From the IMG/VR virus record IMGVR_UViG_3300021400_000134: a DNA stretch of 64,000 nucleotides. One strand, given 5' to 3'. Of this stretch, positions 8,991 to 17,325 are shown piece by piece; position 1 is the first letter of the stretch; each line of letters begins with the position of its first letter. The translations under genes were made by a program, and so were the position numbers. Under the pieces are notes generated by a model that ran no database searches, was not told where the DNA came from, and saw nothing but the letters and a program-made list of their open reading frames with translations. The stretch comes from a virus (taxonomy: Duplodnaviria; Caudoviricetes).

Positions 8991-9158
8991 CCGACCGTAG
9001 TCGGAGTTAGTCTCAACTAACTGACCGATGGTCAGAGTTAGTTAGCCTAAACTAACTGTTGCGTTTCCAACTAATTTGTGAAAGTTCAAACTTTCACAAA
9101 CTTGACTCCCTGAAAATTTTTCATTTTTTTGAAAACAAATTTGTGAATTTTCTCACAA
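8991..9158. promoter_or_regulatory. tandem array of different palindromic operator-like sites
   Basis: CCGAC-N4-GTCGG, GTTAG-N6-CTAAC x2, CTGACC-N3-GGTCAG, GTTG-N6-CAAC, TTGTGAA-N10-TTCACAA, TTGTGAA-N4-CTCACAA; the first six abut. Confidence 0.7.
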
Positions 9159-9391
9159 TAACGGGAAAAGCAAAAAAATTTTAAAATTTTTGAATTTTTT
9201 TCTTGACTTTTGCGGTGGCGTGTGGTATAATGAAAACGGCCTGGTTCGCTAGTAAGCGGGCCGCCAATTATAGCACGACTGGGGGTGCTTGTCAAGCACT
9301 TTTTTTGACAATTTTTTGCCATTTTCTGTTTAGTATTACTAAACTACCGGCAGTTAGTCAAGCCTAACTCTGGCTCAAAAAAAGAAGGCTT

Positions 9392-9826: not shown

Positions 9827-10171
9827 TTAAATCTTGGTGAAATACGCTTTGCCTTTCACCACCTCGCGGGAGACAAGAACATTGTCGCGCATCTTTTTAA
9901 TCAGCGCAGACACTTTCTGCCCACTCGCTTCTGCGAGTTCAGGAACGAGCGCCTGAATCTCACTGACAGTGTAGGACTTTCCGCCCTCCATTGCCTCGTA
10001 AATACGCTCAATCAGTTCAGCGTTTGCCACCTGCTTGGCAGTGGGCTTGGTGGACTTGCGCTCGTTCTTTTTAGCGAGCAGTTCAAGTTCGTGCAGGAGG
10101 AATTCCTTGTCTTCCTCATGAGCGTAGCCGAGAATGCGGTTGAAATAGTCACGTTTCGTCATTTTTTCCAT
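9827..10171 (-). CDS. small winged-helix protein, paralog 2
   Basis: TKRD...HELELLAKKN...KPTAKQVANAEL...SGQKVSALIKKM...VVKGKAYF. Confidence 0.8.
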   Translation of the reverse strand: MEKMTKRDYFNRILGYAHEEDKEFLLHELELLAKKNERKSTKPTAKQVANAELIERIYEAMEGGKSYTVSEIQALVPELAEASGQKVSALIKKMRDNVLVSREVVKGKAYFTKI

Positions 10172-12079: not shown

Positions 12080-12693
12080 GTGTAATCACCTTTTACCTTT
12101 CTTTTTACACTTTTATTTTAGCATCTCTTGGATGCTTTGTCAAGAGTTTTTTTAACTTTTTTTAAGTTTTTTCTCTTGAGGAATCAGCCGAAGGTTTGTG
12201 GATGTGTTGTAAGTTTTTGGCACCCTCGCCCCTTACATTTTAAGTATAGCACCTTCGTTGTAGTTTGTCAAGGGATTTCTTTTAAATTGTTAAGAAATTT
12301 TTTCGGGGGTCTCTCTTGGTCTCTCTCCGTCCCTTGCAAGTATAGTATAGCAGATGGTAGAAGCCTTGTCAAGACTTTTTTTAACTTTTTTTCAAGTTTT
12401 TTAAGTGCTGACTTGGCGGGGCTTCCTTACCCTTGCTACACCCATAGTATAGCAGATGGAGCGGATGCTGTCAAGGGTTTTTGGGAAAATTTTTTAAGAA
12501 ATTTTTTTAAATTTTTCTCTTGACAAAAATTGCGCGGGGTGGTATAATGGAAAATTCCGGCCGTGCGGACAGTGCACGGCCGGCCCAGTTAGTCAAGCCT
12601 AATTTTAAAAATTTTTCGGCACGCCTGGCCCCGTGTGCAGTAGAGACAACGGGTTCAGGTGGGTCATTCCGCAAGCACAAAAAAGGCTTACTG

Positions 12694-13168: not shown

Positions 13169-13516
13169 TTAAATCTTTGTGAAGTAAGCAGCTCCCTTCA
13201 CAACTTCTCTCGATACGAGAACATTATCACGCATCTTTTTAACGAGAGCGGAAACCTTCTGACCGCTTACATCGGCAAGTGCAGGAATCAGAGCCTGAAT
13301 TTCAGCGATACGATAGGACTTGCCTGTTTCCATCGCTTCATAGATTTCTTCAATCAGTTCAGCATTGGCAACCTGCTTTGCAGACGGCTTGTCAGAGCGT
13401 CTTTCATTCTTTTTTGCGAGCAACTCGAGTTCATGGTCGATGAATGCGATTTCCGCTTCATCAGTCAGATGGGTACGAATCTGTTCGAACATTTCACGCT
13501 TTGTAATCTTTGTCAT
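13169..13516 (-). CDS. small winged-helix protein, paralog 4
   Basis: Close paralog of 9827..10171. Confidence 0.8.
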   Translation of the reverse strand: MTKITKREMFEQIRTHLTDEAEIAFIDHELELLAKKNERRSDKPSAKQVANAELIEEIYEAMETGKSYRIAEIQALIPALADVSGQKVSALVKKMRDNVLVSREVVKGAAYFTKI

Positions 13517-14090
13517 AATTAATCACCTTTTACCTTTCTTACAATTTAAGTATACACCTTTTTGGTTATGTTGTCAAGAGGTTTTTTCAGATTTTTTTAA
13601 GGATTTCTTTTTTCTCATCCCCTCTTTACATTCTAATTATAGCAGACTTGCTATACTTTGTCAAGAGGTTTTTCTACATTTTTTTCTGAGGCTACGTATC
13701 TATCGCTTCTAGTTGCTCAATACGGTTCATCCTCTTGACATTATTAGTATAGCAGATGTTGGAAGATTTGTCAACACCTTTTTTAGAAATTTTTAAGAAA
13801 TTTTTTTCTATTTCTTTTTTATTTCTATAATAATTATAAACCTTTTTTATAAAAAAGTCAACAAAAATCTTTGCTAATTTTTTCACAAACGCCGCCCGGG
13901 ATTTCCGCAAAAATCACACAATTTCACATAATTTTCTTCTTGACTTTTGGTCGTGGGTGTGGTATAATTTTCGGTCGTTAGCGGCAACTAACTATGGCTT
14001 AAAAATTTTTTATTTTTGCACAAAAAGTGTTGACAATCTTTTTCTTTTGGTGTATTATAATCTTGTAAGTTAAAGGAAGGTAAAAACACT

Positions 14091-14804
14091 ATGAATTTCT
14101 ACATGACTATTGACACAGAAACAACCAACTCACTTGATGATGCTCTTGTTTACGATTTGGGGCTTGCCATCCATGATGCGGAAGGTAATGTGTATCATAC
14201 TGAAAGTTTTGTTATCGCTGACATTTTCTTCAATGAAGAACTCATGAAAGTTGCGATTTTTGCAAATAAGATTCCGCAGTATCGTGCAGACATTGAGAAT
14301 GGAATACGCACGCTGACTACATTCAGAAAGGCACGCACTGAAGTGCTGAAACTAATGAAGCGCTACAATGTTAAGGCGGTCATTGCGCACAATGCATTCT
14401 TTGACTTCAAGTCATTAAATACAACGCTCCGCTTTCTGACTAATTCAAAATATCGCTTCTTCTTTCCATGGGGTACTGTAATTTGGGACAGTCTGCGCAT
14501 GGCTAAAACTACTTTTGGAAAGGATGCCAATTACACAAAGTGGTGTGAAGAGCATGAATACCTTACCAACAAGTACCGCAAGCCGAAAATGACTGCCGAG
14601 GTTCTGTATCGCTACATCACCAAGAATGAAACCTTCATTGAAGAGCACGCAGGACTTGCAGATGTGCTGATTGAAAAGGATTTGACAGCCTACTTTCTCA
14701 AGCATGACCATGCAGGAATGAAGAAATGTCTCTTTAATCCGAAGAAGGAAGAAGATGTTAAAACCATGCTTGAATGGTGGACAGAAAGTTTGCTCTGTGA
14801 GTAA
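14091..14804 (+). CDS. DEDDh 3'-5' exonuclease
   Basis: IDTETT (ExoI), AHNAFFD (ExoII), EEHAGLADV (ExoIII); promoter TTGACA at 14030. Confidence 0.85.
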   Translation: MNFYMTIDTETTNSLDDALVYDLGLAIHDAEGNVYHTESFVIADIFFNEELMKVAIFANKIPQYRADIENGIRTLTTFRKARTEVLKLMKRYNVKAVIAHNAFFDFKSLNTTLRFLTNSKYRFFFPWGTVIWDSLRMAKTTFGKDANYTKWCEEHEYLTNKYRKPKMTAEVLYRYITKNETFIEEHAGLADVLIEKDLTAYFLKHDHAGMKKCLFNPKKEEDVKTMLEWWTESLLCE

Positions 14805-14947
14805 ACTTTTTATTTAGTCTGACTAAACTTTCGGGATAAAAAAATTTCTTAAAAAAATTGCAAAAAATGCTTGACAAAATGCCGGGAGTGTGTTCTAATG
14901 AAAAAACTGGTCGTTGCGCCCGGCGACGGCCAGCCCGAAAAGTCAAC

Positions 14948-15000
14948 AAAAAAAGCCAATAGGCAAGGAGGAGGAACCCATTGGCTTGGAGCGGTTTTTA
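14948..15000 (-). ncRNA. terminator-like hairpin with anti-SD loop UCCUCCUCCUU, copy 2
   Basis: AAGCCAATGGGT TCCTCCTCCTT GCCTATTGGCTT followed by a U-run; directly 3' of the tRNA-like gene. Confidence 0.55.
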
Positions 15001-15003
15001 AAT

Positions 15004-15091
15004 TGAGGGCGACGGGACTCGAACCCGCATTATAGCGCGCATATCACATTCGGCACACTGACCGACGGCACTACCATTGTGCTACGCCCTC
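15004..15091 (-). tRNA. tRNA-like gene with long variable arm and aberrant anticodon arm (most like degenerate tRNA-Leu CAG)
   Basis: Acceptor GAGGGCG/CGCCCTC + A73; D-arm GCAC-AATGGTA-GTGC; T-arm GCGGG-TTCGAGT-CCCGT; anticodon arm TCGG-TCAGTGTG-CCGA is non-canonical; no encoded CCA. Confidence 0.75.
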
Positions 15092-15123
15092 ACAAGGGGG
15101 GAGCCTTTCGGCTCCTCCTGCGC

Positions 15124-15456
15124 TTACTCGGCGATTCCGAAGGTTGCCTTTACCTTACCCTTGGCTTCAGTCACCTTGGTGAACTTGCCACTGCGGTTGA
15201 GGATTGCGCTTGCCTTCTGATTGGAGATGCCGAAGGCTTCTTCAACCTGTCCGCAAGTTACAGCGCCATTTTCAGCGATGTAAGCGACAATCTTATCAGC
15301 GAGTTCAGCGTTGGCAACCTGTGCCTTAGTCGGCTTATTGGACTTGTAGCCCTTGCGCTTGTCGAGCAGTTCGAGTTCATGTCCGCAGAAACCTACGATT
15401 TCAGCGTCATTGGAGCAGACTTCCATAATCTTGTTCAGCATTTCTCTCTTTGTCAT
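15124..15456 (-). CDS. small winged-helix protein, paralog 5
   Basis: N-terminus like paralogs 2 and 4, C-terminus like paralog 1. Confidence 0.8.
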   Translation of the reverse strand: MTKREMLNKIMEVCSNDAEIVGFCGHELELLDKRKGYKSNKPTKAQVANAELADKIVAYIAENGAVTCGQVEEAFGISNQKASAILNRSGKFTKVTEAKGKVKATFGIAE

Positions 15457-15554
15457 AATCATCACCTTTTACCTTTCTTATCTCTTTGTGATTTTAGTAT
15501 ACAACATTTCAGCCATGTTGTCAAGCCCTTTTTCAAGGTTTTTTTATTTTTTTA

Positions 15555-15633
15555 CTCCAATTCTTTTCACTCTTGGAAACCAAGCAGATTGACAGTCGCT
15601 ACACAGTAACAGTCGTCTTTCTTTCCTTTGGTA
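15555..15633 (-). ncRNA. candidate small RNA (promoter, no ORF)
   Basis: TTGACA-N16-TATAAT upstream; ACCAA/TTGGT and TCCAA/TTGGA stems. Confidence 0.4.
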
Positions 15634-15687
15634 ATTTTATTATAGCACTTTTCAGAAGATTGTCAAGTACTTTTTTTAAGAAATTTT

Positions 15688-15838
15688 TGAAACTTCCTCT
15701 TCAAGTTTCAGAGCGGGGTTGCGCACCCACCGCACAAGTCAACAGGGTTCATTTGATATTTTAGCAACTCCGAGCCTGCCCTGTAAGGCTTAACGCCACT
15801 GAGTGATGCGGGTTTGAAGGGTTTTCCTTCCCTTTACA
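15688..15838 (-). ncRNA. candidate structured ncRNA (about 150 nt)
   Basis: Own promoter; stems CCGCA/TGCGG, ACAGGG/CCCTGT, GGC-GTTAA-GCC, GGGT-GCGCA-ACCC, TGAAACTT/AAGTTTCA; no SD-led ORF. Confidence 0.55.
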
Positions 15839-15899
15839 CTTACATTATAGCATCTTTTAGCTATCTGTCAAGTGTTTTTTTAACTTTTTTTATTTTTTT

Positions 15900-16061
15900 T
15901 GTAAGGAGCAAACAGCGGTACTCACATGACCATTGATGCAGTAGGGACTACACTCACCACCTCACACCATGCGAGTTAACTAGTATTTACCATGGTTCTG
16001 TTGGTGTCTCTTGCTAGAGCGCTGACATGATACCATTGAGTACCCTTGTTTGCCTCTTACA
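15900..16061 (-). ncRNA. candidate structured ncRNA (162 nt) with long 5'/3' closing stem
   Basis: Promoter TTGACA(16095-16090)-N17-TATACT; TGTAAG..GCAAACA..GGTACTCA pairs with TGAGTACC..TGTTTGC..CTTACA; internal stems CTCT/AGAG, CACCA/TGGTG, ACCATG/CATGGT, GTAG/CTAC. Confidence 0.7.
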
Positions 16062-16115
16062 TCTTTAGTATAGCAGACTTTTGAGAGCCTGTCAATACTT
16101 TTTTTTAAATTTTTT

Positions 16116-16237
16116 CGGTCGCGCGACCTATCTTCTCGGTTCGATTATACTGCTGAACCTGCGGCGATTAACCGTTACTTTGAAGACAGCCTTTGCCAAG
16201 GAGCGGTTTTTTAACGAGGCCTGATGCCTTCCTCACA
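16116..16237 (-). ncRNA. candidate structured ncRNA with three-way junction
   Basis: Own promoter; CTGTCTTC/GAAGATAG encloses CGGT/GCCG and GGTTC/GAACC; contains TTAAAAAACCGCTCC. Confidence 0.55.
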
Positions 16238-16300
16238 CTCTTATTATAGCAGATACCGCTGTAATGTCAAGTGTTTTTTTATTTTTTTTAGCAGTTTTTT

Positions 16301-16349
16301 TAGTAAGTTTTCGGTTAACCCGCTTACCAAGAGTGCTTCATCTCTTACA
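16301..16349 (-). ncRNA. candidate two-hairpin small RNA
   Basis: Own promoter; AAGAG/CTCTT and GGTAAG-CGG/CCG-CTTACT stems. Confidence 0.4.
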
Positions 16350-16443
16350 AGTATAGTATAACAGATTTTAGAATAATGTCAACACTTTTTTTAAAAGTTT
16401 TTAAGTTATTTTTTTCACAAAGTTCGGCGCCCGGGCGGGAAAC

Positions 16444-17115
16444 TCACCGAGCAAAGGCGAGTTTCCGCATTTTCTTGTGCTGTGCCATACATTTCACAGT
16501 AATTGCAATTTCAATCAGCACATCGTCAAGACCCTGATGTTCTTCTGTAAAATCGTTATCTCCTGTAATGTAGCGGTAGAGAATTTCTGCTGTCTTGCGG
16601 ACTTTGCCGTTTTTGCAGAGATAGCCATTTTCTTCACAGAATTTAATGTATGTTTTCTGCTTGCAGATGGTATCTTCTGCCATAACCATTGAGTCATACA
16701 GCGGGATGCCATACGGCAGAAAATAACGGTATTTTGATTTTGTAGTGTAGCGCATTGTAGTAGTTAATGACCGATAGTCAAAGCGGGCATTATGTGCAAT
16801 GATTGCCTTTACATTGTATTTATCACAAAGTGCTTTCACGATTTTTTTAGCGGTGAATACGCTAATCATTTTACGCTCTCCGCTTTTCAGTGCCTGCTCA
16901 TACTTTGGTAACTTGCTTGCATAGTAGGCGGATTTCATCAGTGCTTTTTCTTTAGCGTAAATATCATAGATAACATAACTTGCTTTTTCGTAAACCTTCC
17001 CCCGCTTGTCATGGATTGCAAGACCGAGGTCATACGCAAGCGGGCAATCCAAGCCATTTGCAGTTTCAGTGTCAATTGTCATGTAATAAGTAATACGCTT
17101 GTCAATCTTTGTCAT
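16444..17115 (-). CDS. DEDDh 3'-5' exonuclease, paralog of 14091..14804; TGA stop
   Basis: IDTETA, AHNARFD, EEHQGLDDV. Confidence 0.85.
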   Translation of the reverse strand: MTKIDKRITYYMTIDTETANGLDCPLAYDLGLAIHDKRGKVYEKASYVIYDIYAKEKALMKSAYYASKLPKYEQALKSGERKMISVFTAKKIVKALCDKYNVKAIIAHNARFDYRSLTTTMRYTTKSKYRYFLPYGIPLYDSMVMAEDTICKQKTYIKFCEENGYLCKNGKVRKTAEILYRYITGDNDFTEEHQGLDDVLIEIAITVKCMAQHKKMRKLAFAR

Positions 17116-17325
17116 AGGGTTTCCTCTCTTTACAACTATTATTATACACCTATTGGAGATAATGTCAAGCGTCAGTTTCGGGATTTTTTAATTTTTTTCA
17201 AAAAATTTTTTTATTTTTCCTCTTGACATCGGCGGGCAAACGTGGTATAATTTTGGACCGTTAGCGGTGGCTAACTTTGCGGTTGCCGGTAAAACCGTCC
17301 GGCAGACCGCCGAGCGCAAAAAAAA

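Follow-up and report, generated by a model that had tools for sequence, protein, structure and literature searches.

What purpose is served by a run of six consensus promoters when none of the five intervals that separate them holds a gene? The question is raised by the minus strand of a 64,000-nt stretch of DNA from an uncultured Caudoviricetes phage (IMG/VR record IMGVR_UViG_3300021400_000134; the whole stretch is referred to here as the window), in which an earlier note, made from the letters alone, had recognized five consecutive promoter-ncRNA cassettes and interpreted them as an early-expressed RNA toolkit. In this work we analyze the coding content, folding, conservation and exchange of these intervals, or slots, and weigh several explanations for them. 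The reading that we favor, with a probability of roughly one half, is that the locus is a promoter stack akin to the promoter-early stem-loop (PeSL) cassettes of T4-type phages, adding transcription to an early operon, and that the slot bodies are nested untranslated leaders, among which slot E would be selected, slot C a closed hairpin, and slots B, D and probably A filler.

Data and methods

Related loci were recovered through the 223-aa protein encoded upstream of the array, yielding 20 IMG/VR and 80 metagenome loci from phages of approximately 130-176 kb, some of them with terminal repeats; to judge by sample names, these loci apparently come mostly from the rumen. Five close relatives retain both genes that flank the array or at least the upstream one, with L025 ending inside slot E. 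Approximately 120 chance loci (L112 onward), retrieved with a 15-mer of slot E that was too short, were disregarded. Folding was scored as a z-value against dinucleotide-preserving shuffles, using 300 shuffles. For class-level analyses, one representative for each of 67 gene-less slot families was compared with length-matched 5′ parts of coding cassettes.

Results

Layout of the promoter array

The array extends from the stop codon of the 223-aa gene (17115-16444, minus strand), the product of which is a PHROG of unknown function, to the start codon of a 110-aa gene (15456-15124, minus strand). Within it, six consensus sigma-70/sigma-A promoters occupy 16382-15496 of the minus strand, about 890 nt in total, at a spacing of 110-225 nt. 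Every one of them agrees with the consensus at 11 or all 12 positions and is preceded by an A-rich tract, and five of the six carry the TG of an extended -10 element. The mean column identity of the aligned promoter modules is 72%. Perfect TTGACA-N16-18-TATAAT sequences occur 21 times in the window against 0.14 expected, and the promoters are therefore not chance hits.

P1, 16355..16412, minus strand: A-rich tract, -35 at 16382-16377, TG-extended -10 at 16360-16355
P2, 16243..16300, minus strand: -35/-10 at 16270/16243, 12 of 12 consensus positions plus TG
P3, 16067..16125, minus strand: -35/-10 at 16095/16067
P4, 15844..15901, minus strand: -35/-10 at 15871/15844, 12 of 12 plus TG
P5, 15639..15696, minus strand: -35/-10 at 15666/15639, 12 of 12 plus TG
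P6, 15496..15554, minus strand: -35/-10 at 15524/15496, the weakest of the six and the one that has no TG

The five slots that lie between these promoters are the following:

Slot A, 16296..16349, minus strand: 54 nt, gene-less, two short hairpins, no homologue
Slot B, 16110..16237, minus strand: 128 nt, gene-less, with a predicted three-way junction and a terminal GC hairpin in the window copy
Slot C, 15895..16061, minus strand: 167 nt, gene-less, with a predicted 22-bp closing stem around a multi-branch core
Slot D, 15688..15838, minus strand: 151 nt, gene-less, with a short leader hairpin at the start and an otherwise unique sequence
Slot E, 15545..15633, minus strand: 89 nt, gene-less, conserved, two hairpins

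No hairpin followed by a T run is present on either strand between 15500 and 16400, so that, as far as sequence can tell, there is no terminator within the array. The hairpins at slot ends are followed by A runs and not by U runs; those at the ends of slots B, D and E adjoin the next A-rich tract, and next to the -35 box of P6 there is a short hairpin.

The predicted downstream operon and its paralogues

Downstream of P6 comes a leader that is conserved among a set of paralogues, and after it the following features:

110-aa gene, 15124..15456, minus strand: winged-helix-like, the first coding gene downstream of all six promoters
tRNA-like gene, 15003..15092, minus strand: good acceptor, D and T arms, aberrant anticodon arm, 46 bits with the Rfam tRNA model
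Intrinsic terminator, 14948..14987, minus strand: 8-bp stem, CU-rich loop and T run, the first terminator downstream of the array

The earlier note had placed the array next to the tRNA-like gene and an anti-SD hairpin; in the sequence, this gene (15092-15003) and a terminator with a CU-rich loop (14987-14948) come after the 110-aa gene. The loop of the terminator resembles the 16S anti-Shine-Dalgarno sequence. The anticodon arm of the tRNA-like gene can be drawn either as a mismatched stem with a loop that reads CAG or as a 5-bp stem with a 6-nt loop, and the extra arm is long. The corresponding site is occupied in L002 by a normal tRNA-Lys(CTT) and in L024 by another tRNA-like sequence, which ARAGORN fails to recognize; the more distant relative L005 has a tRNA with the anticodon CTA, of the amber-suppressor type.

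Together with four paralogues, the 110-aa gene forms a family that has a leader in common and the products of which are probably winged-helix proteins, as hinted by a similar Atlas cluster in which 32% of members carry HTH_24. Gene-less slots are associated with this family. Of the 12 in the window, 9 stand before genes that have the winged-helix leader, and over all loci 20 of 119 gene-less slots do so against 13 of 770 others (odds ratio 11.8). Two further stacks on the minus strand, at 12.1-12.5 kb (12100-12500) and 13.5-13.9 kb (13540-13880), consist of three to four consensus promoters each, separated by very short gene-less slots (40-75 nt), and each ends at a paralogue of the 110-aa gene that has this leader too. 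A gene-less slot also precedes the paralogues at 10171 and 2281.

Genetic code and coding content of the slots

In the late structural genes (25000-64000, plus strand), TGA is read as sense. Reading through TGA merges 29 ORFs of at least 150 aa, the largest of 434 aa, into 19, with lengths of up to 2861, 1445 and 1182 aa; it also raises the portal match from 193 to 267 bits and extends it to profile positions 56-495 instead of 162-495. The 223-aa gene, which lies in the promoter-rich and presumably early region, ends at a TGA that is conserved in L024. Phages with standard-code early genes and recoded late genes have been discussed previously (PMC11210395), and the conjunction of a late sense TGA with an early TGA stop fits that published picture. 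No TGA-reading tRNA was found in the window.

Because the late genes read TGA as sense, the slots were rechecked with TGA as tryptophan, and they are still gene-less: under neither code 11 nor TGA=W does any slot from A to E contain an ORF of at least 25 aa with a ribosome-binding site. The possibility that the slots code under the late code was rejected, since the only long frames obtained in this way begin at the transcript start or cross promoters. A tblastx comparison of the slots with all loci returned no similarity as protein; decayed genes in A, C and D were discarded as candidates on the same grounds, no protein-level remnant being detected.

Known RNA families account for none of the slots either. 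Searching 14800-16600 with Rfam 15 at gathering and at permissive thresholds, only the tRNA model matches (15004-15091), all remaining hits reaching at most 18 bits with E >1, and in the arrays of the relatives nothing other than tRNA was matched either. Self-cleaving ribozymes, riboswitches and other Rfam families were thus set aside for want of any covariance-model match, in line with the earlier note, which had failed to match a ribozyme core by eye. The slots were also considered as tRNAs, and this was rejected: ARAGORN and Rfam RF00005 locate a single tRNA-like gene in the window, and it lies in none of the five slots. Neither program lends support to a hidden suppressor tRNA, and the CTTCAAA strings in B and D occur with no flanking stem. 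Complementarity of at least 13 nt at 90% identity or more between the slots and the rest of the window is limited to one chance-level 14-mer, and a distant-mode search of GenBank phage records with 14800-17200 produced no match.

Folding and conservation of the slot RNAs

According to the earlier note, every slot holds a foldable RNA, and this did not stand up to comparison with dinucleotide-preserving shuffles. Slot C has a z-value of -4.0, with 0 of 300 shuffles as low, and of -4.8 in a second run; slot A is marginal, at -2.1 and, in the second run, -2.3; slot E scores -1.0, slot D +0.1 and slot B +0.2. The two RNAs that had been singled out are thus the two that fold least well: the nested-stem RNA of about 150 nt (15688-15838, slot D) folds no better than chance, and the three-way-junction RNA (16116-16237, slot B) has its predicted junction, but neither a fold score beyond shuffles nor a divergence much different from neutral.

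Slot E presents a different picture, being detected in L001, L002, L003, L024 and L025 at 74-91% identity (9-26% divergence). The four-fold sites of the adjacent 110-aa gene differ by 36-46% in relatives, and slot E is hence 2-4 times more conserved than adjacent synonymous sites, taken here as a local neutral proxy. In a set of only five sequences, none of the 22 predicted pairs is lost and five carry double changes, which none of 500 shuffles equals; in slid controls the pairing falls to 22-48%. The second hairpin, just upstream of P6, combines a conserved A-rich loop of 12-13 nt with three different stems. In the region of the first hairpin, direct repeats have changed in concert in a manner for which RNA pairing does not account, and the constraint on slot E could partly act on DNA. 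A covariance-model search for further copies recovered only those already known, together with AT-rich matches at E 0.02-0.8. A hairpin at about 13600-13630 (minus strand), immediately before the promoter that belongs to the paralogue at 13516, displays the A-rich 12-nt loop of slot E on another stem.

In slot C, the closing stem is formed by a purine-rich, ribosome-binding-like 5′ leader paired with a complementary 3′ end. The computed energy of this leader/anti-leader duplex is -20.1 kcal/mol, with a z-value of -5.6 against shuffled bodies. The opposite strand folds equally well (z -4.2), so the strand of this RNA is assigned from its promoter alone.

The remaining slots offer little comparable evidence. 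Slot B has a single homologue, L001:6965-7090, which is 77% identical, and this divergence is about neutral, the four-fold sites of the two flanking genes differing by 20% and 38% between the window and L001. A hand-built six-helix model of slot B keeps 96% of its pairs, with two compensatory and two broken; 124 of 500 shuffles do as well, and the result is not significant. A pattern search for slot B retrieved only L001's own contig and an unrelated chance match in L233. A stretch of about 14 nt from the 5′ flank of the terminator (14948-15000, minus strand) recurs within slot B (16195-16212, minus strand), and the same flank is also present after the tRNA-like sequence of L024, with a different stem.

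In slot D, only nucleotides 4-29 recur, in L003 and L018/L019. They form a 26-nt leader element (15835-15810 in the window), namely a transcript-start hairpin with a purine-rich loop and a GGG...CCC stem. Hairpins of this type precede many ordinary coding genes in the distant relatives L018 and L019 (e.g. L019:4765, 5301, 6835 and 9147), and one is found at L003:10781, so that the element is probably a shared 5′ leader or stabilizer module. Otherwise, blastn over 103 loci gave no homologue of slots A, C and D, the matches in five complete genomes of related phages were confined to promoter parts, and exact IMG/VR searches with an 18-20-mer of C and of D found no match.

There are consequently real signs of a selected fold in only two of the five slot RNAs, C and E, and B, D and probably A look like recent filler under weak or no constraint. 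The earlier idea of five consecutive promoter-ncRNA cassettes is upheld as regards six promoters and five gene-less slots, but not as regards five RNAs. If folding beyond shuffles and conservation are taken together, as the earlier note had proposed, D shows neither of them and B almost neither, while C shows the former and E the latter.

Exchange of slot contents among relatives

Four relatives (L001, L002, L003 and L024) have a stack of four to five promoters, and hence three to four slots, between the same two genes. The slots contain, in order:

Window: A, B, C, D, E
L001: X, B, 31-aa ORF, E
L003 and L024: X, Z, E
L002: X, ORF of about 62 aa, Y, E

Taking the window and relatives together, genes are absent from 17 of the 19 slots at this locus and, when each distinct family is counted once, from 8 of 10 slot families. 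By way of background, 138 of the 908 promoter slots surveyed in the window and related loci are gene-less (15%), the other 770 having small ORFs.

Turnover of the contents is rapid. In L024, the upstream protein is 99.6% identical to that of the window, with 12.6% four-fold differences, and yet the set of slots is different. Aligned with L001, the window loses homology where slot C begins, immediately beyond the -10 element of P3, and recovers it in the A-rich tract of P5. Even within slot E, hairpin 1 is common to L024 and the window and hairpin 2 to L001 and L003, from which it follows that exchange is fine-grained. The architecture of the stack is conserved, its slot contents are swapped, and the breakpoints lie within promoter modules. 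L002 and L024 have a GGGG...CCCC hairpin that extends across the -35 box of P6.

The first slot of the relatives is occupied by X, a non-coding RNA of about 97 nt, where the window has the unrelated slot A. Its copies are as follows:

L001:6816-6912, RNA X
L003:6838-6934, RNA X
L024:2887-2983, RNA X
L002:6774-6871, RNA X
L025:1629-1726, RNA X

RNA X is predicted to adopt a closed multi-helix fold (z -3.9) and has three compensatory pairs, a score reached by 6 of 500 shuffles; it has no match in Rfam.

Gene-less slots as a class

Over the 67 families, gene-less slots fold better than the matched parts of coding cassettes (mean z -1.23 against 0.06, with 28% against 6% below -2; p 1e-6). Their ribosome-binding-like leader is also more often paired, its mean unpaired probability being 0.43 against 0.58 (p 3e-4), and 17 of the 52 longer gene-less slots show leader/anti-leader closure. 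As a general rule, however, leader/anti-leader pairing was rejected: measured against shuffled bodies, it reaches significance in no more than 13-21% of gene-less slots, and in the window in slot C alone. Tracts complementary to the leader are likewise richer in gene-less bodies than in matched coding cassettes when base composition is not controlled for, the excess over shuffled bodies being weak. Structure is enriched in the gene-less class without being universal, which matches the mixed result obtained in the window.

Discussion

A proposed stack of promoters with untranslated leaders

The favored reading takes as its unit a module made up of an A-rich tract, a consensus host promoter and a common purine-rich leader. 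Recombination between repeated copies of this module would insert, delete and swap slot bodies, which at this locus happen to be non-coding. Since no slot has a terminator, read-through from all six promoters is most likely; we infer that the promoters fire early, read into the 110-aa and tRNA-like genes and stop at 14987-14948. Early expression had been proposed in the earlier note as well, and it is a fair inference from host-type consensus promoters. The product would be a nested set of transcripts with the slot RNAs as their 5′ parts, and the stack would sum promoter strength for the operon. Slot E would then be a selected stem-loop module beside the 110-aa gene's own promoter, the weakest of the six, and slot C a long closed hairpin that buries a ribosome-binding-like leader, making it a candidate for a double-strand RNase site or a stabilizer. 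Should the stack indeed sum transcription, it would represent a simple natural device for tuning early gene dosage.

Several observations sit uneasily with this proposal, among them the equal folding of both strands of slot C and the constraint on slot E that could partly act on DNA. If addition were the only purpose, short bodies such as those at 12.1-12.5 kb would do, and the unique bodies of 128-167 nt suggest some cargo. PeSL stem-loops, moreover, terminate transcription, whereas the hairpins of this array, as they read in the sequence, are not followed by a U run.

Alternative explanations

Cargo is the essence of the first alternative, to which we assign about half the weight of the promoter-stack reading: each slot would be a separate small-RNA gene, its transcript released by processing or by non-canonical termination and acting early in trans as a decoy, sponge or antisense RNA. 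Each slot does have a near-perfect promoter of its own, and non-coding families prevail at this locus well beyond the background. The greater structure of the gene-less class relative to matched coding leaders points in the same direction, as do the 5′-3′ pairing that closes slot C and 17 of the 52 longer gene-less slots, in the manner of stable RNAs, and the compensatory changes by which E and X keep their helices. Without terminators, however, the array can just as well be read as a single operon with nested untranslated leaders; B and D carry no signal of fold or constraint, A, C and D have no homologue even where the neighboring gene is nearly identical, and the searches for complementarity in the window and for Rfam families returned nothing beyond the chance-level 14-mer. 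The RNA toolkit of the earlier note can be retained to the extent that gene-less slots cluster here in relatives and fold better as a class; the part of it that implies separate small RNAs is not favored by slots with no terminators between them. If C and E are working RNAs, they would constitute new phage RNA elements that belong to no family.

Slightly less probable still is the view that any function lies in the DNA. The stack would be a by-product of recombination or a sink for host RNA polymerase, its bodies scars or captured fragments, and its RNAs by-products. This accords with a turnover of slot contents much faster than the accumulation of point substitutions, with the nearly empty, very short slots at 12.1-12.5 kb, and with slots B and D, the one evolving at an approximately neutral rate and the other indistinguishable from shuffled sequence; B also holds a copy of the flank of the terminator on the tRNA side, as would be expected of a captured fragment. 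It sits poorly with slot E, with its conservation and covarying stems, and with the 22-bp leader/anti-leader stem of slot C, which is far beyond chance. Nor does it explain the excess of structure across the gene-less class or the non-random placement of gene-less slots before one gene family.

It is improbable that the gene-less slots are one half of a translation control exerted at the RNA level, in which leader-complementary bodies and CU-rich terminator loops would bind ribosomes or early mRNA leaders in trans, timing the shut-off of early, standard-code genes ahead of the late TGA-sense ones, with slot C and the E-loop hairpin as its working parts.

Comparison with known systems

The closest counterpart of the promoter-stack reading is provided by PeSLs, the promoter-early stem-loop cassettes of the T4-type phages RB49 and phi1 (Arbiol et al. 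2010, PMC2839356; Comeau et al. 2014, PMC4122927). These combine strong sigma-70 promoters, an AT-rich tract and a stem-loop, and mediate modular shuffling through crossovers located between the -10 element and the ATG or in the AT-rich region (PMC2839356). The array resembles them in its repeated AT-rich tract, strong sigma-70-type early promoter and nearby stem-loops, set in an accessory early region, and in contents that differ between close relatives through crossovers inside the promoter module; the G4/C4 hairpin over the -35 box of P6 in L002 and L024 is a motif of the type described for PeSLs. It differs from them, beyond the matter of termination, in that PeSLs flank small protein genes (ORFans), whereas here five consecutive slots are gene-less, and in that the array belongs to an unrelated TGA-recoded rumen phage, the promoter and ribosome-binding signals of which appear Firmicutes-like. 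In this way, the PeSL idea of promoter modules as recombination handles is carried beyond T4-type coliphages to an uncultured rumen phage that is unrelated to them and recoded at a stop codon, and in which such cassettes can carry non-coding bodies and be stacked before one regulator family.

Tandem promoters are familiar from coliphage T7, in which the early promoters A1, A2 and A3 are followed by the RNase III site R0.3. In both systems, strong promoters for the host RNA polymerase, about 100-130 bp apart in T7, stand in series, uninterrupted by genes, before the first early genes, and the leader contains a long double-stranded RNA element (R0.3 in T7, predicted for slot C here). T7 has three promoters at the end of its genome and a proven processing site; the present array has six, with spacers that differ from one another and are swapped, and slot C is only a candidate for cleavage.

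The small stable RNAs C and D of phage T4, of 100-140 nt, are encoded in the tRNA cluster and co-transcribed with tRNA genes, and their function is still unknown. They share with the slots the condition of phage-encoded, structured non-coding RNAs of similar length in the company of tRNA genes. Those of T4 are conserved, stable and processed with tRNAs; here, three of the five slots are orphans, and stability and processing are putative.

The early mRNA of phage SP82 has been reported to contain Bs-RNase III sites (Panganiban and Whiteley 1983, cited in PMC4838370), and a 5′ stabilizer rich in purines has been reported as well (Hue et al. 1995, cited in PMC7509114). Going by these secondary citations, the early, host-takeover regions of SPO1 and SP82 would resemble the array in the density of sigma-A consensus early promoters before small genes, and in early RNAs that begin with purine-rich, ribosome-binding-like sequence and contain processing sites of double-stranded RNA. 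The search of GenBank phage records revealed no relationship in sequence. To our knowledge, gene-less multi-slot stacks have not been described in the early regions of SPO1 or SP82.

As a worked case in distinguishing selected RNA from filler in phage intergenic DNA, the array has two of its five candidates passing and two clearly failing. Elsewhere in the window, counter-oriented consensus promoters are found on the plus strand at 14871 and 17223, the former of which (at about 14871) points toward the array and would give transcripts antisense to the tRNA-like and 110-aa genes, and a gene-less, palindrome-rich block lies near 9.0-9.2 kb (9000-9160).
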